A stretch of 34,472 nucleotides of DNA from Candidatus Thorarchaeota archaeon (GTDB lineage: Archaea; Asgardarchaeota; Thorarchaeia; Thorarchaeales; Thorarchaeaceae). Below are positions 2,707 to 14,053 of the stretch, in pieces. The notes under the pieces were generated by a model. It saw only the letters and a program-made list of their open reading frames with translations. It was not told the origin of the DNA and did not search any database. Position numbers and translations under genes: made by a program. The stretch is from contig JAEOTX010000043.1 of NCBI GenBank assembly GCA_016839605.1, positions 1-34,472 of the forward strand, given 5' to 3'. Each line of letters begins with the position of its first letter. Positions within the stretch are counted from its first letter, which is position 1.

Positions 2707-3906
2707 TCATTCCATGTAGCTTAGCACTTTGACCAGAGTCTTTGATGCGAAATCTACAGGAACTGGCAGTCTACATCTAATCAAATGCTTCAGATATCTG
2801 GGTCCAGCTAAGCGCATACACTGGTCGGTTATTATGTCGGAGGGCATAACCTGGTCGGCAATCCTAAGAATTCTGAGGGCAGCATACAGCTCCTTCCCTA
2901 TCTCCTCCCTCCATGTTTCCTCATAGACTGCAAGCGAAACCCCATCTTTCAAATGACTGACGACGGCTTCTCCAGCTATTTCACCCCCAACTAATGCTGT
3001 GGGAATGCCTCCACCATTGGAGGCCATGACATGACCTGCCGCATCCCCGACAAGAACAGCATTTTCTGAAAACGTTCTATCCACAGGCCCGCCAACAGGA
3101 ATGATGGCTCCAACTCGAGAAACGATGTTTGATTTCTTGGTGCGTGGGGATACAAGTGGATGAAACTGAATGAATCTTCGAAGATACTCCTTCAGCGGCA
3201 CATCCGGGACTCCGAAAAGTCGTCGCATGCCAAAGCCAATGTTGGCTGTGTCATCACCCTTGGGAATAATCCATGCATACCCACCTGGAGCAACTTGTTT
3301 CCCAAAGTACATCTCTGTGGTCTTCGAGTCGCATTCTATCTCAGTGACGACATAGTTTAGAGAAGGACAGAGGTCTCTTCCAGGGTTGTGATAGTGATTG
3401 CCCATTGACTTGGATATGAGAGAGCTTGGTCCATCAGCACCTATCACTACACGGGCATTCATCTCTGCCTTTTTACCCGCTTGCCTCACAATGAGCCTGT
3501 TCGATTTTGATCTCTCAATCACTGTCGAATCCAGCATTATCTTAGCGCCTGCATCCTCAGCTTGATTTGCAATACGCTGGTCAAAATTCGTTCTGTCAAT
3601 AACATGAGCATCAAGTTTGAAATAGAACTCGTTATTCAAAGGAGAAGCGAGCATGAGTCTGCTGGTCCGATTAGTGATGAGCCTATTCGGGATTCTGACA
3701 AGACGTGATGCTCTTGAGGAGTCACGCAAAAGGTCCTGCATCTCTCTGGAAGTAGGCAAGAACTCACCACAATGGATTGGAACTCCTATCTCTCTCCTTC
3801 TGTCAACTACCAGTGTCTTAAAGCCTGCAGCTGCAACCACTCTAGCTGCTGTGCAACCTGCAGGACCTGCACCTACGACAATGACATCATAGGAGTTCTC
3901 AGCCAT
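2707..3906 (-). CDS. geranylgeranyl reductase family flavoprotein (DGGGPL reductase / MenJ-like)
   Basis: YDVIVVGAGPAG, CGE, DR..FD, IGADG, PGGYAWIIP, LVGDAAG, NGGGI. Start at MAENSY (3906). Confidence 0.9.
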   Translation of the reverse strand: MAENSYDVIVVGAGPAGCTAARVVAAAGFKTLVVDRRREIGVPIHCGEFLPTSREMQDLLRDSSRASRLVRIPNRLITNRTSRLMLASPLNNEFYFKLDAHVIDRTNFDQRIANQAEDAGAKIMLDSTVIERSKSNRLIVRQAGKKAEMNARVVIGADGPSSLISKSMGNHYHNPGRDLCPSLNYVVTEIECDSKTTEMYFGKQVAPGGYAWIIPKGDDTANIGFGMRRLFGVPDVPLKEYLRRFIQFHPLVSPRTKKSNIVSRVGAIIPVGGPVDRTFSENAVLVGDAAGHVMASNGGGIPTALVGGEIAGEAVVSHLKDGVSLAVYEETWREEIGKELYAALRILRIADQVMPSDIITDQCMRLAGPRYLKHLIRCRLPVPVDFASKTLVKVLSYME

Positions 3907-3978
3907 AACATAGGGCGCATCCGTCAGACTAAAAAAAGAGTTGGTTGCTCCCACAATGACCCGTGTGAGGCTCTCCAG

Positions 3979-4653
3979 ATGATATCGATACAAGTTGAAG
4001 GACTTACCAGACGCTACGGATACAGAGTCGCTCTAAATGACATATCGTTCGATGTCCCAGTCGGTGGTGTTCATGCCCTATTCGGGAACAACGGTGCAGG
4101 GAAGACAACGCTCATGCGTATCATATCAACACTCCTGCAGCCCCACGCTGGAAAGGTGGCAGTCCTTGGATTTGATACGAAAGAAGACCCCATAGAAGTC
4201 AGAAAGAGGATTGGTGTTGTCGGAGATAAGCCGCTCCTGTATGGCGAGTTGACTGGTAGGGAGAATCTGAATTTCTATTCAGACCTTTACGATCTAGAGA
4301 GTTATACAGCTAGTGCCAGCATAGAAGACCTAGCTGAACAATTCGACGTCAAACGTTGGTTAGATGAACCAACAAAGATACTCTCCACGGGACTGAGGAA
4401 GAGATTCGATATAATCAGAAGCTTGCTACATAGTCCTGACTTGTTCTTACTCGACGAACCATTCTCAGGGCTCGACAAAGACTCCACTCAGGTGTTCAGA
4501 GACTACATTGAAGAAAAACGACAAGACAGAACCGCCATTGTAACTACACACAACTTGTCATTGGGATCGGAGATATGTGATGATTTCATCACGCTGAGAA
4601 AAGGTGAGATTGTAGGCCAAGGGCCAATTTCAGAGTTTGATGGAAACATTTGA
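3979..4653 (+). CDS. ccmA: heme exporter ABC ATPase CcmA
   Basis: Walker A GNNGAGKTT, signature LSTG, Walker B LLDEP, H-loop TTH. Directly upstream of ccmB/C. ATG 3979 follows GTGAGG. Confidence 0.85.
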   Translation: MISIQVEGLTRRYGYRVALNDISFDVPVGGVHALFGNNGAGKTTLMRIISTLLQPHAGKVAVLGFDTKEDPIEVRKRIGVVGDKPLLYGELTGRENLNFYSDLYDLESYTASASIEDLAEQFDVKRWLDEPTKILSTGLRKRFDIIRSLLHSPDLFLLDEPFSGLDKDSTQVFRDYIEEKRQDRTAIVTTHNLSLGSEICDDFITLRKGEIVGQGPISEFDGNI

Positions 4654-4663
4654 GGTGAATGAA

Positions 4664-5386
4664 ATGGGTTCTGGTCTATCATATGCACTTGCAATTGCCA
4701 AGAAAGATCTAGTCACTCAGATGAGGAAGCGATTCGAAGCATTCTCTATGTTCCTGTTCGCGATTATTGCAGTCTTTGTATTGGGTCTTGTTCTGAGTTC
4801 TGCCACCTTTATTGTGCCAGATCCAGAGACAAGACTAATTGTCATGACCGAGATTGGGGCTGGAATGCTGTGGGTAGTAGTGTTTTTCACAGGCATGTTC
4901 GGATTCTCCCCGGTCTTCATCTCAGAGTCTGAAACTGGCACATTGAAGGGATTATCTCTCGCACCCATACCAGCTTGGTCAGTATACCTTGGAAAGGTGA
5001 TCTACGGGTTCATTCTCATGGGTCTGGTCGAGCTGTTCCTGGTACCAATCTCCATGGGACTTCTGGGCTTCACTTTTGCAGCTGACGTGTCACCCATTTT
5101 CATACTTGCAACGTTCTGCCTGGGGACATTAGACTTAGCAGCTGTTGGGGCGATGGCATCAGCTCTGACAATGCCAGCTGAGTCCAAAGCCACGGTCTAT
5201 CCTATAGTGTATTTCCCAACTGCTACTACTGCGCTCATCCTTTTAGTTGAAATCACGAGAATGTTGGCTATCGGAATTCCTTTAGTTGGACCAGGAATCG
5301 TTGATCTATTGATTATCCTTTCAGGACATGTGTTTGCAATGGTAACACTCTCAGCCACAGTGTTCCATTTCACACTTACATCTTGA
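4664..5386 (+). CDS. ccmB: heme exporter permease CcmB
   Basis: AIAKKDL start, LW..F..F..E.E.GTL.GL.LAP, YLGK, 6 TM helices. ATG 4664 follows GAGGTGA. Confidence 0.88.
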   Translation: MGSGLSYALAIAKKDLVTQMRKRFEAFSMFLFAIIAVFVLGLVLSSATFIVPDPETRLIVMTEIGAGMLWVVVFFTGMFGFSPVFISESETGTLKGLSLAPIPAWSVYLGKVIYGFILMGLVELFLVPISMGLLGFTFAADVSPIFILATFCLGTLDLAAVGAMASALTMPAESKATVYPIVYFPTATTALILLVEITRMLAIGIPLVGPGIVDLLIILSGHVFAMVTLSATVFHFTLTS

Positions 5387-5457
5387 AACCATAGGAGAAG
5401 CATAAGGTTCATATTGACTTCAATTATCGAAACGAGCCCAGCAAGGGATGTGAAGAA

Positions 5458-6129
5458 GTGAACACAAAACGGATGGTTCTCTATATCCTCTCACTGATAG
5501 TATCTTTCGTCTATCTCTATATGGTATGGATTTTCGCACCGCCGGAGTTGAACCTTGGGGAAAGGATTAGGATCTTTTTCCAGCACGTGGCTCCAGCCTT
5601 GATAGGCTATCTGGCATTTGGAGTCACTCTGGTTGCGGGAGTAATGTATCTCTGGAAGCAAGACCTAAGATACGATTTGATTGGAGCAGCATCCATCAAG
5701 ATCGGACTGGTCTTCACAACAATTACCTTGTTAAGTGGAATGATCTGGGCTAACGCCAGCTGGGGTGTATACTGGAATTGGGACCCCAGAGAAACGACTA
5801 CACTCATCTTGTGGATCGCATACGCATGTCTAATTGCCTATCGTGCGTCAGTAAATGACAGAGATGTCAGAGCGCAATATGGATCCGTCTTTGGAATCAT
5901 TGCGTTTCCTGCAGTCATTCTTAGTTATATTTCAATCCGCATTTGGGAAACCCTACATCCCATCGTAATTACTGGCGAGGGTCTTCAGATGGGCCCAGAG
6001 CACGGCATGACGCTAATGGTCAGCCTAATTGCTGTCGGTCTTGTCTATCTGCTGATACTTGATCTCACATATCGAATCGATTCGGTTGCTGAAAGACTGA
6101 TGGAGCTTAGAATGCAGAGGAGTGGATAG
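5458..6129 (+). CDS. ccmC: heme exporter / cytochrome c biogenesis protein CcmC
   Basis: WWD motif WGVYWNWDPRET with flanking His residues (FQHVA, TLHP). Confidence 0.93.
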   Translation: MNTKRMVLYILSLIVSFVYLYMVWIFAPPELNLGERIRIFFQHVAPALIGYLAFGVTLVAGVMYLWKQDLRYDLIGAASIKIGLVFTTITLLSGMIWANASWGVYWNWDPRETTTLILWIAYACLIAYRASVNDRDVRAQYGSVFGIIAFPAVILSYISIRIWETLHPIVITGEGLQMGPEHGMTLMVSLIAVGLVYLLILDLTYRIDSVAERLMELRMQRSG

Positions 6130-6517
6130 TATGCAGTCACCGGACATAATTCTCTCAAATGAACTCTTCACAGTTTCAGTAATACTTTGGGTAGGTACCT
6201 TCACACTACTGTTCTGGCTCTTCATTCGGATGCATAGTCTTGACAAGGCAATTAAAACACTAGCACTGGCAGAGAATCAGGAGTTGAACTCTCAGTCAAT
6301 GTCTAACAAGATTGTTGCTTATGTCGCATTAATCTTGGAACTGATCGGTGCTGCTATCCTCTTGTTAGGGCTTATCGCATGGGTTCCAATCCCGCTTTTC
6401 CCTATGTCAATTGTTATTTGGGTCGGGGTCTTCATTATGCTGCTGTGGCAAATGCTAGGCGTATCTTCTCTTGAAGACTCTCTGGCTACGCTGTCCTTGG
6501 AATCATTTCAGGAGTGA
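6122..6517 (+). CDS. CcmD-like membrane protein with two tandem CcmD-like repeats
   Basis: Lies between ccmC and ccmE. Two copies of S..(I/L)WVG.F..L.W......SL....TL, resembling the CcmD family. Confidence 0.6.
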   Translation: MDSMQSPDIILSNELFTVSVILWVGTFTLLFWLFIRMHSLDKAIKTLALAENQELNSQSMSNKIVAYVALILELIGAAILLLGLIAWVPIPLFPMSIVIWVGVFIMLLWQMLGVSSLEDSLATLSLESFQE

Positions 6518-6520
6518 GCA

Positions 6521-6919
6521 TTGATGAAGAAGAAGACAAGAATGATGTTAATTGCTGGTGTCTTAGTAGTGGTCGTAGGGCTGGTCTCATATGCAATGCT
6601 CAATCTATTTGTTGATCCATACATCAGCGTTGACGCGGTGGTGGACAATCCTGATGCGTACAGAGGTAGAGTCATTCAGGTTAAAGGCACACTCCAACCA
6701 GGATCGATCTCTATCAATCCTGGAAACGTGACACTAGTGTTGGAGGGTAACAACTCAACTATCCTTGTAATAGTAGACACCGACCTTCCTTCGTTGACAG
6801 ACGGCCAAGAGATGGCAGCCATAGGTGTACTTGAAGATGGGGAGAATTTAGCCATCCGAGCCTCACAGATACTCACTCAGTGTTCAAGTAAATATACAGC
6901 TGTGACAACAACAGACTAA
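6521..6919 (+). CDS. ccmE: heme chaperone CcmE, Cys-type (System I*)
   Basis: N-terminal TM helix, OB-fold-like body (VKG....GSI), C-terminal 'ILTQCSSKY' = CxxxY instead of HxxxY. Confidence 0.9.
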   Translation: MMKKKTRMMLIAGVLVVVVGLVSYAMLNLFVDPYISVDAVVDNPDAYRGRVIQVKGTLQPGSISINPGNVTLVLEGNNSTILVIVDTDLPSLTDGQEMAAIGVLEDGENLAIRASQILTQCSSKYTAVTTTD

Positions 6920-7687: not shown

Positions 7688-9757
7688 TCATTCGTTCTTA
7701 GCTGATGCAGGAATCTCTTCCTCTTTCTGTTCGTCTTCTTGTCCATAGAGGTCTTCCGTTTTCGCCTTCAGAGACTTTCTGAAATCGGAGAACTCCATGG
7801 CACTCAATGGCAGCAACGCCATTATCATCAGAAAAGTGCCAAGCCAGACAAAAGACACTAGTGGAAGAATCTTCGCTGAAAGGTCAACGGTATAGGTATC
7901 TGGTCCAAGCTGGTTGAAAGTCCGAATTGATACGAACACATCTCGTAGGGCGGAACTCTGCACGTATACATCCTGTGTCACTTGTTGCCATTGCGGATTC
8001 CCTTTGATTACTATGACCCCAAGCCAAGCAGAACTTCCTTCCGTCACTTGTACTAAAACACGCAGTTCGAAGTCATATTGATTCACCCAATGAATCAGAG
8101 ATATCTCGGCTACTCCGACAACAATGCCTGAATCGCCCAGTTCCGCGGAGTCCCCATTCAGATATGTGTTGGTCTGATCGATAACCACATTCTCACTAGA
8201 AAAGACTCCAAGCAACAGAACCAAGAGACCTAGATGGAGCATAAGACGTCCCATACGTCTCATTGTAAAGGCACCACTCTCTCTTCCTGCAATGGTCCTG
8301 GCGAACGCCACCACGAGGTATGCCACTCCAAAAACAGCAGCAGGAATCAATGCATTAGCTGGCCAGTAATGTGTCGGTAGCGCTTGGCCAGTGGTGACAG
8401 TCAGTATCGCAAGGACACCACCAACTCCAAGGAGGACTAGAACCAGAATCGACTTCAGTTTAGCCCGCAGAATCGTGCTCCTCATGCAATAAAATGCCGA
8501 TACAACTAGGAGCAAAGACCCTGCATAGAAACCAGCTCGAAAGAACTCAATTCCTATAGATACCATGCTTTCGGTGAAACCAACTGGGTCGATGATTGCT
8601 TGAACAAGATTGAGCGCCGCGGGAAGGACAACACCCGAGACTGAGGTTGTTAGAACAACGAGAATTCCAATCAGTGCAATCTTGATTGAGAAATCCCTGA
8701 GATTCGATAGCGCGAAGAATTTCCAGCCTTCATCATCCTCATCGTCAGACATGTCTACATATCCTGCACGAACTGTTAGCACAGTCGCCAATACGAAGTT
8801 GAACAGCACAGTAACAAGCATTGTCCAGCTGACAAGAGTAATGGAGAATCCGTGTACTGAGTTTAGAACTCCGCTTCTAGTAACCCATGTTGCATATATC
8901 ACGGTCACATATGCAAAGACCAGAAACGAGTCCCTAAGGACATCATTGTTCCTGAAAATAGCCTTTGCATGGAAATAAGCGGTGAGAAGCAACCAAGGCA
9001 CGAGCGAAGTCGTTTCCACAGGATCCCATGCCCAGTACCCACCCCATCCAAGGACAATGTACGCCCAGTAGGCTCCAATAGCTATACCCAGCGAAAGAAT
9101 GAGCCAGGATGCGACTGTCATGAACCGAGTCAGGGACTCCAATATGGGAATTGGTTCGGCATTGCGTTCCTCTGAACGTACAGTAAAGCCAGCAAGCTTG
9201 ACTGAGAATGGAATCACTGCAATGGCATATGCTATGAACACAATTGGTGGATGTATGACGTTCCAAATCGTGCTCAGTAGAGGATTTAGCCCAAGTCCAT
9301 CAGGAGGCAATGCACCGAGGTGCGGCCTGAAAGGATTAGATGCCAACGCATTGGCAGCAATCAAGATTGTCTGCAATGCAAGAATTACTGCGCCTCTATA
9401 GACTATTGTGTCCTCCTCATATCCTCGAACTGCTATTCTGTAAGTCATCAATAGAAGAAATGAGATGGCAGTCCAAAAGATCAACGAGCCTGATTGTCCC
9501 GCCCAGAGTGAAGACACCTTGAGCCACCAGGGCGCAGTCGAATTCGTTGTAAGAAACACGTATTCGTACCCAAACTGGTTCCCAAAGATAAGGGCACCCA
9601 TATACACGACTGAGCCTAACGCTGCCAGTGTGCCTATGGAGATCATCATCATTGAGATAGTATCATAGTTGCTAATTCTAGGTCCCAAAAGCAGGATGGC
9701 CATGTCGATAATTCCAGCGCCAACTGCTACTATTAGTAAAATTGTTCCAATGTCCAT
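7688..9757 (-). CDS. ccmF: cytochrome c synthetase (heme lyase) CcmF
   Basis: LWAGQSGSL, GLNPLL, IHPP, WWD motif WAYIVLGWGGYWAWDPVE, AYFH, TRSG...SVH.F, LHLG, P.VSFVWLG; all four canonical His positions present. Confidence 0.95.
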   Translation of the reverse strand: MDIGTILLIVAVGAGIIDMAILLLGPRISNYDTISMMMISIGTLAALGSVVYMGALIFGNQFGYEYVFLTTNSTAPWWLKVSSLWAGQSGSLIFWTAISFLLLMTYRIAVRGYEEDTIVYRGAVILALQTILIAANALASNPFRPHLGALPPDGLGLNPLLSTIWNVIHPPIVFIAYAIAVIPFSVKLAGFTVRSEERNAEPIPILESLTRFMTVASWLILSLGIAIGAYWAYIVLGWGGYWAWDPVETTSLVPWLLLTAYFHAKAIFRNNDVLRDSFLVFAYVTVIYATWVTRSGVLNSVHGFSITLVSWTMLVTVLFNFVLATVLTVRAGYVDMSDDEDDEGWKFFALSNLRDFSIKIALIGILVVLTTSVSGVVLPAALNLVQAIIDPVGFTESMVSIGIEFFRAGFYAGSLLLVVSAFYCMRSTILRAKLKSILVLVLLGVGGVLAILTVTTGQALPTHYWPANALIPAAVFGVAYLVVAFARTIAGRESGAFTMRRMGRLMLHLGLLVLLLGVFSSENVVIDQTNTYLNGDSAELGDSGIVVGVAEISLIHWVNQYDFELRVLVQVTEGSSAWLGVIVIKGNPQWQQVTQDVYVQSSALRDVFVSIRTFNQLGPDTYTVDLSAKILPLVSFVWLGTFLMIMALLPLSAMEFSDFRKSLKAKTEDLYGQEDEQKEEEIPASAKNE

Positions 9758-9774: not shown

Positions 9775-11961
9775 CTAGCCGCTTCTCGTAGATCTTTTCC
9801 GCCTAGGTCTCTTCTTTGTAGACCTCTTGCGAGCTTCTTTCTTGAGCTCCCGTTGTGTGCTCATTGCATTCTGGCGCCGAATCCTAGCAATCCCATAACC
9901 GAGACCAGGAGCAGCTACTAATCCAATTGCAGCTAGAGTCTGCCAAGTCAACAACGGATTTGTGAATATTGGAGCTCCAAGTATCGTGAGACGGTAGAAG
10001 GCACTCTCAGCCTGATTTCCTGATTCATCCTCTGCAAGGCAATAGTAAGAAATCACATCACCAGCAGCAAATTGACCCAAGTATATCTGCCAGACTAAAT
10101 ACTGCTCATCAACATCCACAGCACTCATGTTTGAAGGAGTATAGTCACCATTATTCACTTTCCAGTACATCTTGAAGTATTCAAGATGGCTGTGCGTGGG
10201 GAATTCATATGTTCCAAATTCGATGACCACATCGTCACCTTCCCTCACTGCATCTGTTGGATATACTGCTCTGAGAAGCACAACAGGTGCCCAAATGTCC
10301 TCTCTAACCTCAAAATAGTAGTTCCCGGCTACAAATGATTTTCCAAGAGTATCATTTGCAATCACTACAAAGTTGACCCCTGTGCCGTCTGGGAGTTCAT
10401 CAATAGTCGTGTTAAATACGCCTCCAAATTCAGCATTTGGCTCAAGCTCAACCTGAGAAGAGTTCTCTGGATCAGCCCCCGATAGGGTATAGTTCACCAT
10501 TACTCGATCGATACCATCTTCATCCAGTGCCGTGGCCATCAACGTAATCTTATCGTTAGGTCGGGGATTAGTTGGGCTAACACGAACATATGACACAATT
10601 GGAAGACCAAAGCCCCACACTTTCTCAAGAGCAAGTACTCCAAGAGCTTGTACTCCAGTGTAATGGTTCCTCCAGTCATCTGTCCATACATCGCTTGCCT
10701 CATCTCCGTTTGTGAAGAAACCGCCACCAGCTTGGTCCCAGAGTTTGGCCAATACGATGTCGAGAGTGTCAATGACAAGCTGAATGTAGAAGGTATTGCC
10801 GGTGGCTACATACAGTAGCTCCTGAGCCCTTACCATCTGAAACTGAATCTCTGAGTACTTGTATCTCTCCGTGTCTTCAAAGCCTAGTGGTGCATAGGGT
10901 ACACCATCCAGGACCTCGACGTACCAGCCACCGTACTGAGTGTCCCAGTTATTGAAGAGTAAGGCTTTGTGAGTGTCTTCTGCCCAATCAAGGTAGGTTG
11001 AGTTGCCCGTGACATTATATCCCTTGAGAAGAGCACGGATGGCCATTGCATTGAGATCTGTAATTACAATTCTAGCAGGCCGTTCAGTTGAAGGTACTAT
11101 GGGGACTCCACCCGTACTATTGGTCGCAAGTCTAAAGCCCTGATGGACGGTGTCATTGTAAACCGGCATATACTCAATCATAAAGGAGAGACTACTATCA
11201 GCCATTGCTATCAGTGTAGAATTCGAAGTTCGTATACCTTCGTCATAGAGAGCGATGGCTCCTAAGGCCAGATGGTCCAGTCGCTTTCCATCATTTGGAT
11301 AGACCTCATAAGCATCACCTTCATCATCCAGTGTACAGTTTGGATATGTCATGAAACGTAGTCCTCCATTAGCACTATCGTATAATACATCAGTCAGACA
11401 CGTCATAGCTTTCTGTTTCATTTCAGTGAAATCCAGAGTATCGTTCACACTTTCTGCAATGGACAATGCCTCATATGCATAGGCTTGCACTCCTGCACGT
11501 TTTGATTGCGCCAGCAAATTGTCAGGATGATACAGGTTTACATAGAAGCCTGGATGATGAGGATCTGCAAACCCGTTTATCATTGATTCAGCAGCACGAG
11601 TGATCATTATGGAAAGGGTCTCATTTCCAGTGATATCGTAGATTCGTGCCATTCCCGCAATAGCCCAATAGTAGTCTGCTACAGAGGGAGCCCAACCAAA
11701 TTCAGGACCCCAGGTGGGAAATCCGTAATGCCAAACTATCCCATTTCTGTAGAGAACTAGTTTGTCCGAGAGTACTGCTCCTGTTGCCAATGCAAATTCA
11801 TAGTATGAGCTGACGTTATACTGCTCATTCTCCTCTTGAGCAACAGACAGCGTCTCCACTAATAGATCAGGAACCCGTGTCGAGTCCAGGGGTTCCACGG
11901 TTCCGCTGCCCATTGTCACAAGAGCGACTAGTATCATGGTTACAATGATTTTTTTGTTCAT
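9775..11961 (-). CDS. secreted, C-terminally anchored protein with (alpha/alpha)6-barrel (YyaL/AGE/GH76-like) and two Ig-like domains
   Basis: Signal peptide MNKKIIVTMILVAL; barrel repeats (D...GG(L/W/F), 'NAMAIRALL..Y..TGN..YLDWAE'); two beta-rich repeats; TM helix plus very basic tail. ATG 11961 follows AAGGAG. Confidence 0.7.
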   Translation of the reverse strand: MNKKIIVTMILVALVTMGSGTVEPLDSTRVPDLLVETLSVAQEENEQYNVSSYYEFALATGAVLSDKLVLYRNGIVWHYGFPTWGPEFGWAPSVADYYWAIAGMARIYDITGNETLSIMITRAAESMINGFADPHHPGFYVNLYHPDNLLAQSKRAGVQAYAYEALSIAESVNDTLDFTEMKQKAMTCLTDVLYDSANGGLRFMTYPNCTLDDEGDAYEVYPNDGKRLDHLALGAIALYDEGIRTSNSTLIAMADSSLSFMIEYMPVYNDTVHQGFRLATNSTGGVPIVPSTERPARIVITDLNAMAIRALLKGYNVTGNSTYLDWAEDTHKALLFNNWDTQYGGWYVEVLDGVPYAPLGFEDTERYKYSEIQFQMVRAQELLYVATGNTFYIQLVIDTLDIVLAKLWDQAGGGFFTNGDEASDVWTDDWRNHYTGVQALGVLALEKVWGFGLPIVSYVRVSPTNPRPNDKITLMATALDEDGIDRVMVNYTLSGADPENSSQVELEPNAEFGGVFNTTIDELPDGTGVNFVVIANDTLGKSFVAGNYYFEVREDIWAPVVLLRAVYPTDAVREGDDVVIEFGTYEFPTHSHLEYFKMYWKVNNGDYTPSNMSAVDVDEQYLVWQIYLGQFAAGDVISYYCLAEDESGNQAESAFYRLTILGAPIFTNPLLTWQTLAAIGLVAAPGLGYGIARIRRQNAMSTQRELKKEARKRSTKKRPRRKRSTRSG

Positions 11962-12070
11962 CTGAAGGATTTCTCCTTGACAAATTCTCGGCTCCTTGTG
12001 GAGACCGTTTAAAGCTGCCGAAGCAACCTTGTTCAAAACTCAATGCCATACTATACGTTGAGAACTCACG

Positions 12071-12146: not shown

Positions 12147-13655
12147 CTAGCGGCGTCTGCCAACTAGAATACCTAGGACCAAACCAACGACGATACCGCC
12201 AACGCTGCCCCCAATCAAGAGAAGTGTGTCACCAGCCGGTGGTGGTGGTGTACCAGTCACAGTGTTTGTGACTGTCACAGTGACAGTGACCGTTGGGCCA
12301 GTGTCCGTGTTCTCATAGAAGTAGGCTTTAGCATCAACTAGATCTACGAAGGCTGCATTGAGCTCTTCAAAGATCATGTGAGGATAGTGGAAGCCCATTG
12401 ATCTGTCAGCCTCGTAGAGGTGAACAACGTCCTCGACCTCTTCAATGATATCGGCAACGTGGTTCGCGACAGCGTGATCGGCTCCTTCAGTAGCGTTGTA
12501 GGCATCAATTATTGCCTGTAGAGCAGTGGCCTCGGTGTGAATCTCATGAGTGAGTGCCTCAAAGGCATCCTCAATCATTTCGAGTTGTCCAAGTGCCCAT
12601 TCTTCTGCTCCTTCCGCATCATGGCATTCCTCCTGACCACAAGCGATGTCAGGCTTGACAACGAATGTGTGGTTCATGAATGGATCGCCACTCGCAACGG
12701 TAAGGTCATATCCATGACAGTCAGTGCATTCAACGCCAGCCAAGTTGTGTGGACCACCAAGCCAGACGGTGTACATCGGATGATGATCACCTACGTGGCA
12801 GACACCACAAAGCTCGGTTGCGTTCACTGCCCTGATGTAGGCAGGTGAACCGTCCTCCACCCAGCTCGAGTGAACTGCGTGACATGCCGGACATGAGATC
12901 GAGGTGTATGGACCATCTACTGGAAATGCTCCAGAGCTCAATCTCGTACCGTTTACAGCGGGGGATGATGTGGCTAGTTCGCCAGGGTTCTGATGCTCGA
13001 TAAAGGCCTCAGTGGCTTGGCAGTGCATACAATATGTCGCTGCGTGGTCACTAGACCTTAGATCGGTCAAAGAATTAGCATGTACGGATCTGTTCCAAAC
13101 GCCAAACTGCTGTGGATGATCGCTCAGAAGGTCACCAGAGTGGCAAGTTGTACCACAGGTGGCACCTGAGTAGTCGACCCACTCAGCAGCACTGATGTTG
13201 TGACATGAGAAACAGTTCACACCAAGGAAATCGTAAGATCCATCCGTAGCGTTGTAACCGGTTGTGTGACATTCTACACAGTACGTGTCATTGAATAGGT
13301 TGTCTTGCCCAACTGTATTGTTGTAGGCATTGAATCCCATTTCAATTTCACCTATAACTATGTGACCGCTTGTCGCGTTCCACCAAGCCGCTGTGGCGTG
13401 GCCTGTCATTGACCAATTACCGTACCTGTCTCCATGACATGGAGCTGCTCCATCACAGCTTGCGGGGTCATCGCCCCAGCCGGGCTGTGCTAGCAGAGCC
13501 TCATGCGTATCCCTGTCGGACGTACCAACCAAAGTGATTGGTATGCCGGATCCCGTTGGTCCTAGGAGAATAGCGAACCCAATCAAACAGAGGAAGAGGT
13601 AATAACCTGCAACCATTCGCTTGTTGACTTCTGGAACCTCTTTATAATATACCAT
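12147..13655 (-). CDS. surface-anchored multiheme (up to 9) c-type cytochrome, NrfA/HAO/OcwA-like fold
   Basis: Five CxxCH motifs plus CX5CH, CX3CH, CX4CH and CxxCQ; C-terminal helical bundle with 'DRSMGFHYP'; N-terminal hydrophobic signal; Thr/Val linker, TM helix and RRR. Start uncertain (13655 or 13616). Confidence 0.92.
   Translation of the reverse strand: MVYYKEVPEVNKRMVAGYYLFLCLIGFAILLGPTGSGIPITLVGTSDRDTHEALLAQPGWGDDPASCDGAAPCHGDRYGNWSMTGHATAAWWNATSGHIVIGEIEMGFNAYNNTVGQDNLFNDTYCVECHTTGYNATDGSYDFLGVNCFSCHNISAAEWVDYSGATCGTTCHSGDLLSDHPQQFGVWNRSVHANSLTDLRSSDHAATYCMHCQATEAFIEHQNPGELATSSPAVNGTRLSSGAFPVDGPYTSISCPACHAVHSSWVEDGSPAYIRAVNATELCGVCHVGDHHPMYTVWLGGPHNLAGVECTDCHGYDLTVASGDPFMNHTFVVKPDIACGQEECHDAEGAEEWALGQLEMIEDAFEALTHEIHTEATALQAIIDAYNATEGADHAVANHVADIIEEVEDVVHLYEADRSMGFHYPHMIFEELNAAFVDLVDAKAYFYENTDTGPTVTVTVTVTNTVTGTPPPPAGDTLLLIGGSVGGIVVGLVLGILVGRRR
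13641..13648 (-). promoter_or_regulatory. TATA-like box for cytochrome gene (would favour a leaderless start at 13616)
   Basis: TTATAAA on the minus strand about 25 nt upstream of ATG 13616. Confidence 0.35.
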
Positions 13656-14053
13656 ATTTGAGATTCTCCATTCTCCATGGATTATTGTAACTTCGAACAC
13701 GTCTAGCATAAAAAGTTGTTCGTTATCGAAGATATAGTGAAGTCGATTTTATTACGAATTGTAATTCATTTAGAATGTATACAGTATGTAATGAAAACAA
13801 TCCGATAGCAAAGTTATCGAAATCAGAATATCTCATCCGTTTAAGTATTGGAACTTTGATTTCATCCTTACAAGTTATAGCCATTGATATGTGTCGATGT
13901 CAACATTGACGCGAGCCGATGACAAATCAGCGTGAAATCAGTATCATCTCATGAGCAGAGAATCATATATCCATCAATGATTCGAACCAGGTCTGTGCAG
14001 CGGTGCCGTTATTAGTCAGAAGCTGAGAATGAATTCTGCAGTAGGGACGCGAA

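Follow-up and report, generated by a model that had tools for sequence, protein, structure and literature searches.

OcwA, the cell-surface cytochrome of Thermincola potens JR (PDB 6I5B), carries nine haem motifs arranged as a c554-like tetrahaem part and an NrfA-like pentahaem part, which ends in a three-helix bundle. Its haems 5–9 superpose on haems 1–5 of NrfA; the iron of haem 5 has five ligands, one of them a proximal His, and the non-bonding pair HH380/381 stands above an open distal site (PMC6703420). OmhA (PDB 6QVM), the undecahaem S-layer cytochrome of Carboxydothermus ferrireducens, belongs to the same clade and has both open-haem sites, although it possesses two extra N-terminal haems; the motifs at its open haems are canonical (PMC9250108). 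In NrfA and ONR, the exactly equivalent haem has Lys in place of His after the second Cys, which provides a precedent for a non-His motif at this site. To our knowledge, all natural c-type attachment motifs described so far have either His after the second Cys or, in NrfA, Lys. Here we analyse a gene located at 12147..13655 on the minus strand of a 34,472-nucleotide contig (JAEOTX010000043.1 of assembly GCA_016839605.1, Candidatus Thorarchaeota archaeon), which is called the window below. Its product is a nonaheme c-type cytochrome of the OcwA/OmhA type from a Thorarchaeota-like Asgard genome; it is predicted to be tethered to the membrane and to face outward, and its fifth motif, CMHCQ, has Gln after the second Cys.

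The full open reading frame (ORF) occupies 12147..13709(-) and encodes 520 residues, with the stop codon at 12147-12149; all residue numbers refer to it. The likely start is M19, at which the N-termini of 110 homologues align, so that the gene begins at 13655 and the protein has 502 residues, as does the entry for this cytochrome in our collection (P0002; protein entries are given as P numbers and loci as L numbers). Motif 5 (13017..13031, minus strand) reads C227-M-H229-C230-Q231. The first-pass annotation of the window had reported CMHCQ with the Gln codon CAA at this place, as number five of nine motifs. Both statements hold: the reverse complement is TGT ATG CAC TGC CAA, and nine Cys motifs in the reported order precede a helical bundle that contains SMGFH. 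Among 115 homologues, mostly from metagenome-assembled genomes (MAGs) of Thorarchaeota, Hermodarchaeota and “Promethearchaeota”, column 231 contains Met in 103, Gln in ten, Leu in one and His in one. C227, H229 and C230 are each retained in at least 115 of the 116 aligned rows, and H229, the second residue between the two Cys (x2), in 114 of the 115 homologues. As to whether Gln is conserved in archaeal homologues, which the annotation had left for checking, the residue does recur, but Met predominates. Judged by this distribution, Gln does not define the motif: it stands in for Met in a minority (10%) of cases within a conserved C-x-H-C-[M/Q]. His or Lys, which the annotation had regarded as contradicting its reading, was found at motif 5 in no close homologue.

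Comparison by profile and by structure places this motif within a known fold. A profile of 114 homologues matches OcwA with an E value of 9e-24 and all nine motifs in register, while NrfA follows behind with 3.5e-13. The AlphaFold2 model of the cytochrome (pLDDT 76.6), which contains no haems and has the helices of the C-terminal bundle at 351-449, finds OcwA and OmhA as its best Foldseek matches, and HAO appears only with E values of 0.48 or more. The VIA-align Z scores are 21.4 for OcwA (332 residues), 19.2 for OmhA, about 15 for ONR, about 14 for NrfA, 13.5 for MccA and about 10.7 for HAO entries of the octahaem HAO/HDH family. The fold is that of OcwA and OmhA. The NrfA/HAO-fold core proposed in the first-pass annotation is retained as far as the C-terminal pentahaem is concerned, which aligns to NrfA, but OcwA and OmhA are closer relatives and HAO is a distant one.

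In the profile alignment, CMHC[M/Q] falls on CLKCH, the haem-5 motif of OcwA. Because OcwA haem 5 superposes on NrfA haem 1, motif 5 is placed at the catalytic-haem position, and the suggestion that the single non-His motif lies exactly there is supported by the alignment and the published superposition together. The residues above this haem can also be traced: H309 and H310 align to the “VHH” pair of OcwA, which is HH380/381 after a 29-residue numbering offset. They belong to D308-H-H-P-M-Y313 (12771..12788, minus strand), the predicted distal pocket over haem 5, which also corresponds to the “HPEY” His of NrfA. In the 115 homologues, position 309 is Arg in 69 and His in 31, position 310 is His in 93, Tyr in ten and Gln in three, and position 313 is Tyr in 97. 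The “GDH” of this segment had been likened to the distal Asp-His loop of HAO. We rejected this reading: the Asp varies within a family consensus of G-x-[R/H]-H-P-x-Y, and among the structural relatives HAO is the weakest. In HAO itself, the P460 haem bears a Tyr cross-link from the neighbouring subunit.

The differences from OcwA are nevertheless considerable, the identity being only about 16-24%. In addition to CMHCQ in place of CLKCH with its proximal His, motifs 1, 4 and 9 have longer Cys spacing, the host is an archaeon, and membrane segments are present at both the N- and C-termini. Haem 9 of OcwA has His/Met ligation, whereas His occurs at the aligned position (H321) in the Asgard family. 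The CMHC[M/Q] proteins (type A) have nine conserved non-motif His residues, compared with six distal His ligands in OcwA (PMC6703420).

The alternation of Met and Gln at residue 231 was analysed on a tree of 30 close relatives in which the motif and trait columns were masked. Gln231 requires at least six Met/Gln changes on this tree. A single Gln clade was rejected, since keeping the Gln rows in one group lowers the log-likelihood by 495 units (p-AU 3e-40). Gln231 invariably precedes Ala232 (13014..13016, minus strand), which co-varies with it, and Met231 mostly precedes Ser or Thr; a Met-Ala sequence (P0045), representing an “MA” intermediate, is sister to a Gln-Ala sequence (P0052). The transition from ATG to CAG or CAA takes two or three substitutions and passes through Leu or Lys codons, and both of these residues are rare but present at position 231 in the wider family. 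Over more than 100 sequences of 40-60% identity, the position is restricted to Met and Gln, with rare Leu, Val, Lys and Arg. This behaviour fits a putative weak axial-ligand position rather than a packing residue, because only Met or Gln is accepted in place of general hydrophobics. A similar alternation is familiar from type-1 copper proteins (plastocyanin, stellacyanin, and laccases), in which Met, Gln and Leu alternate at the weak axial position; axial Met/Gln swaps in these blue copper proteins tune the redox potential. The analogy is one of mechanism and not of family, as metal, fold and cofactor are different and there is no homology.

The motif extends beyond the close family. Distant relatives (30-38% identity), some of them named Hodarchaeales or Hodarchaeota, also have C-L-H-C-M at haem 5, and the other variants seen there are CLHCV, CLKCL, CFSCK, CLHCK, CMPCR, and CMKCQ. 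The second open haem of OcwA corresponds to motif 2 of the cytochrome, which reads CVECH (13266..13280, minus strand), and at this site several Hodarchaeales-type relatives (P0125, P0126, P0132, P0146, and P0172) carry C-[S/G/A]-H-C-M. Some Hodarchaeales-type proteins have C-x-H-C-M at both open-haem sites. A subgroup of these relatives shows GGCCM or GCCH at haem 2, where the first Cys is gone and a Cys stands at x2. In the full set of retrieved proteins, His or Lys stands at x2 in 177 of the 179 CxxCM motifs and in 13 of the 13 CxxCQ motifs, as opposed to 52 of the 1477 CxxCH motifs.

The same motif is multiplied in giant cytochromes of 970-1740 residues (P0149, P0164, P0188, P0189, P0217, and P0222), in which a module of about 95 residues is repeated up to nine times. 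The module is equivalent to the haem-4/5/6 segment and contains CGxCH, SHH, SAH, Y-CA[H/K]CM-SP, and CIVCH-x-x-H; in some modules the central motif reads CAKCM, CAKCH or CARCH. These proteins are membrane-anchored and end with an NrfA-like module, Ig-like domains, a transmembrane helix, and an acidic tail that contains a zinc ribbon. In the minimal tandem modules, three motifs are matched by exactly six invariant candidate ligands; this tally is suggestive, although no ligand can be assigned from it.

A canonical counterpart of motif 5 is found in a paralogue with CMYCH (L028:6001-7440 and L043:1662-3095; also P0094 and P0117), which co-occurs with a CMHCM copy in at least two MAGs (L021 with L028 and L016 with L043; Hermodarchaeota DZ1M.409 and Thorarchaeota LCG1B.545). 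The paralogue lacks H69, H229, [R/H]309 and H310, and it has its own conserved His residues near positions 200, 202 and 454, which are absent from type A. Because of this exchange, the predicted His network is rewired between the CMHC[M/Q] and CMYCH types. The loci of the paralogue are not adjacent to ccmF and do not show the three-gene order described below.

The explanation which we favour, and to which we give as a whole a probability of about 0.45, is a thioether-bound haem 5 with residue 231 as a weak, exchangeable axial ligand and with its distal pocket kept, in a surface oxidoreductase. Haem 5 would be held by thioether bonds to C227 and C230, and residue 231 would lie beneath the iron at the canonical proximal position, offering the Gln amide in this protein and the Met thioether in most relatives. 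The Met/Gln swaps, offset at residue 232, would tune how labile this branch haem is or what potential it has. Small molecules or a bound acceptor could react in the distal [R/H]-H-P-x-Y pocket, and haems 1–4 and 6–9 would conduct electrons. Such a protein could function in electron transfer, extracellular or between species, as a terminal surface oxidoreductase with OcwA-like side reactions. We count for this explanation the occurrence of C-x-H-C-M at haem 2 in the Hodarchaeales relatives, where OcwA has its other open haem, as well as the retained distal pocket and the dedicated Ccm context (one CcmF, conserved synteny, and no other multihaem ORF found).

The near-obligatory His or Lys at x2 is probably needed for haem attachment. 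According to the passage of PMC4158909 in which these experiments are cited, the Ccm system of E. coli failed on CXXCK, CXXCM, and CXXCR variants. Attachment at CMHCQ would therefore need another lyase specificity or the help of His229, and the x2 residue would probably give the haem lyase the nitrogen ligand that it requires during attachment.

Several points weigh against this explanation. Leu or Val, which cannot bind iron, occupies residue 231 in a few relatives (P0083, P0125, P0132, and P0168), and residue 310 of the distal pocket is Tyr or Gln in 13 homologues. A basic x2 also stands beside the canonical His, both in CLKCH of OcwA and in the CAKCH and CARCH modules, and an independent-contrast sign test of the coupling between x2 and the residue after the second Cys, based on four supported contrasts, was not significant. 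Short-patch recombination could have produced the Met/Gln toggling instead of repeated selection. Both the contact of Gln or Met with the iron and the attachment of haem at CMHCQ are predictions. Finally, we know of no natural precedent for a five-coordinate c-haem ligated by Met or Gln.

Haem 5 may also be present but take its proximal ligand from elsewhere, either from His229 (Lys in some relatives) or from a distant His such as H69, while Gln or Met only fills space. A proximal ligand of the active-site haem coming from outside CXXCH does have a precedent in Lys56 of octahaem tetrathionate reductase (OTR, PDB 1SP3; PMC9250108), although the OTR motif is still CXXCH, lies at the haem-2 position, and is not accompanied by a C-terminal helical bundle. 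In chemical terms, this solution would make haem 5 an ordinary five-coordinate haem with His or Lys as its ligand, as in OcwA and NrfA. His and Lys, both proven proximal ligands in the superfamily, occupy x2 in 190 of the 192 CxxC[M/Q] motifs, the Leu and Val variants show that a ligand at residue 231 is dispensable in some lineages, and the canonical CMYCH paralogue lacks H229, H69 and H310 together. We consider it rather unlikely all the same, as a residue that only fills space should vary beyond Met and Gln and has no need for repeated two-nucleotide jumps between them. H69 is not conserved in the Hodarchaeales relatives, and a basic x2 is found beside a motif His in OcwA (CLKCH) and in the CAKCH and CARCH modules. 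Moreover, in canonical CXXCH geometry the side chain of x2 is directed away from the iron. A different possibility, and a more doubtful one, is that the protein no longer has haem 5, in which it would resemble MccA, and is an octahaem cytochrome with Cys-x-His-Cys-Met/Gln serving as a small metal site or a redox-active disulfide. Cys, His, and Met or Gln are classic copper ligands, and the Met/Gln/Leu spectrum at residue 231 resembles that of the axial position in type-1 copper sites. The failure of E. coli Ccm to mature CXXCM (in the same passage of PMC4158909) and the presence of one CcmF with no CcmH found agree with a loss, and the haem chain does not depend on haem 5, which MccA lacks (PMC6703420). 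Yet the distal pocket residues [R/H]309, H310 and Y313, which make sense only above a haem face, are still conserved, the exact CxxC spacing and the register of OcwA haem 5 are kept, and the same motif recurs both at haem 2 and in the tandem modules, whose three motifs each give a normal haem density. Four such residues within five positions would also be too crowded for one mononuclear site.

The names in public databases point in another direction, as many homologues carry the PGAP name “ammonia-forming cytochrome c nitrite reductase subunit c552”. A true NrfA/ONR ammonia-forming nitrite reductase or an HAO-type enzyme, in which Gln replaces the Lys of CxxCK, would be in line with these names, with the PF02335 match of 30 bits, and with the alignment of the C-terminal pentahaem module and helices to NrfA, including the “HP.Y” His and the “GFH.P” helix. 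This is very unlikely, since the NCBIfam NrfA models TIGR03152 and NF008339 give 18.5 and 18.3 bits, where the cut-offs are 692 and 595; with scores so far below the cut-offs, the naming of the homologues is an over-annotation. CXXCK is absent from the cytochrome, and Lys occurs at motif 5 only in two distant relatives. NrfA has a loop of about 45 residues, with the Ca2+ and Tyr elements, that links the haem-3 motif to “HPEY”; in the cytochrome this loop is deleted, only three residues separating CGVCH from HHPMY. The protein has nine haems, not five or eight, and OcwA and OmhA are clearly closer to it. NrfA needs a dedicated lyase of the NrfE or NrfI type, and the conserved operon contains no NrfH or NrfBCD gene. 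Even OcwA reduces nitrite at only about 1 per minute (PMC6703420). We infer that the cytochrome is not a dedicated nitrite reductase. An origin of the Gln codon in a sequencing or assembly error, or in a recent inactivating mutation of one genome, deserves mention because CAA is one base away both from CAT/CAC (His) and from AAA (Lys). It is practically ruled out by the presence of Gln in ten homologue clusters and its encoding by CAG in six other, independent contigs (L009, L022, and L047-L050), compared with CAA in the window. Ala always follows, close homologues have neither His nor Lys, and the remaining motifs and the operon are intact.

Axial ligation determines what a haem can do. The Met/Gln motif deserves attention because the described motifs supply His or Lys and because CXXCM is not accepted by E. 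coli Ccm. More than 100 Asgard proteins conserve it at the position of an active-site haem, and it is linked to its own haem lyase. It would amount to a haem coordination chemistry not seen before or, alternatively, to a haem-motif relic put to a new use. In the open-access literature we found no description of a natural CXXCM, CxHCM or CxxCQ haem motif, and the main evolutionary study of the superfamily filtered its sequences for known motifs only (PMC9250108); C-x-[H/K]-C-[M/Q] is apparently undescribed. As a tentative generalisation, which we hold with less confidence than the explanation favoured for the single protein, C-x-[His/Lys]-C-[Met/Gln] could be a new class of covalent haem-binding motifs at the OcwA-type open-haem sites of Asgard archaea. 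The haem formed would be a reactive one at the cell surface, ligated by a thioether, an amide or an i+2 His/Lys; lineages would retune it by Met/Gln exchange, and its installation would fall to a single CcmF, working without CcmH, whose gene accompanies that of the cytochrome. Near-identical natural proteins that differ as Met/Gln pairs offer a ready-made experiment in ligand tuning. The finding also bears on electron disposal in Asgard archaea, the closest prokaryotic relatives of eukaryotes; the cytochrome is absent from the published Asgard metabolic models found in our literature search.

The cytochrome gene is accompanied on the minus strand by genes for a 753-residue surface protein (9775..12036) and for a haem lyase of the CcmF/NrfE family (7688..9757), the sole one found in the assembly. 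The order cytochrome, surface protein, CcmF is kept in about 27 Asgard loci (L007-L044) at 43-65% identity, with the gene for the surface protein always between the other two. The 753-residue protein has a C-terminal transmembrane helix and gives faint hints of an (alpha/alpha)6-barrel (weak matches to cellobiose/GlcNAc 2-epimerase and GH88/GH76). The plus strand carries ccmA, ccmB, ccmC, a gene in the CcmD slot, and ccmE (3772..6919 together), and Pfam matches were obtained for CcmA, CcmB, CcmC, CcmE, and CcmF. CcmE (6521-6919, plus strand) ends with QCSSKY, the archaeal Cys-type CxxxY haem-binding motif. The archaeal variant of System I can thus be recognised by ccmABCEF and by Cys in place of His in the CcmE motif.

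In the assembly, which is 80% complete, CcmF and CcmC each occur once, and a search for further ORFs with more than two haem motifs found none; because of this, the Ccm island appears to serve the single cytochrome. No CcmH was seen in the window, and no second CcmF/NrfE paralogue dedicated to the odd motif was found in the assembly at this completeness. The sole CcmF scores slightly higher on NrfE than on CcmF models, but all these scores are far below the cut-offs and uninformative.

The other parts of the cytochrome, all encoded on the minus strand, follow the OcwA order. Motif 1 is CDGAAPCH (CX5CH; 13434..13457), and CVECH is followed by CFSCH as motif 3 (13200..13214) and CGTTCH (CX3CH; 13140..13157) as motif 4. 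After CMHCQ, motif 6 is CPACH, which continues as AVH with the conserved H280 (12870..12893), and motif 7, the equivalent of NrfA haem 3, is CGVCH (12795..12809), directly preceding VGDHHPMY. CTDCH (12714..12728) and CGQEECH (CX4CH; 12621..12641) represent motifs 8 and 9. The SMGFH sequence (12387..12401) of the C-terminal three-helix bundle corresponds to “SVGFHNP” in NrfA and “SNGVHNY” in OcwA. Besides PF02335 (c552), the protein matches PF13435 (cytochrome c554). Where OcwA has a non-bonding His pair over haem 2 (H281/H282), the cytochrome has D197-H198, in an uncertain part of the alignment and with H198 present in only 57 of the 115 homologues. In the profile search, the recently solved “multiheme cytochrome c selenoprotein (MccSep)” (PDB 9wt8/9wt9) appeared as a weak relative of the N-terminal module.

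The outer parts of the protein are compatible with a cell-surface location, as predicted from a hydrophobic N-terminal segment, which may be a signal or an anchor (13542..13613, minus strand), 11 N-x-S/T sequons, and a Thr/Val/Pro stalk with a C-terminal transmembrane helix that ends in RRR (12150..12308, minus strand; helix 477-501 of the model). The N-terminal segment, GYYLFLCLIGFAILLGPTGSGIP, is near-invariant over about 110 homologues, a degree of conservation not usual in signal peptides that are cleaved off. It may remain on the protein as an anchor, bind a partner as a helix, or act in sorting. The C-terminal stalk and transmembrane region resembles, at low identity, other large proteins of the same genome (loci L002-L004) and of metagenomes (P0205 and P0208), which suggests a shared surface-anchoring signal.

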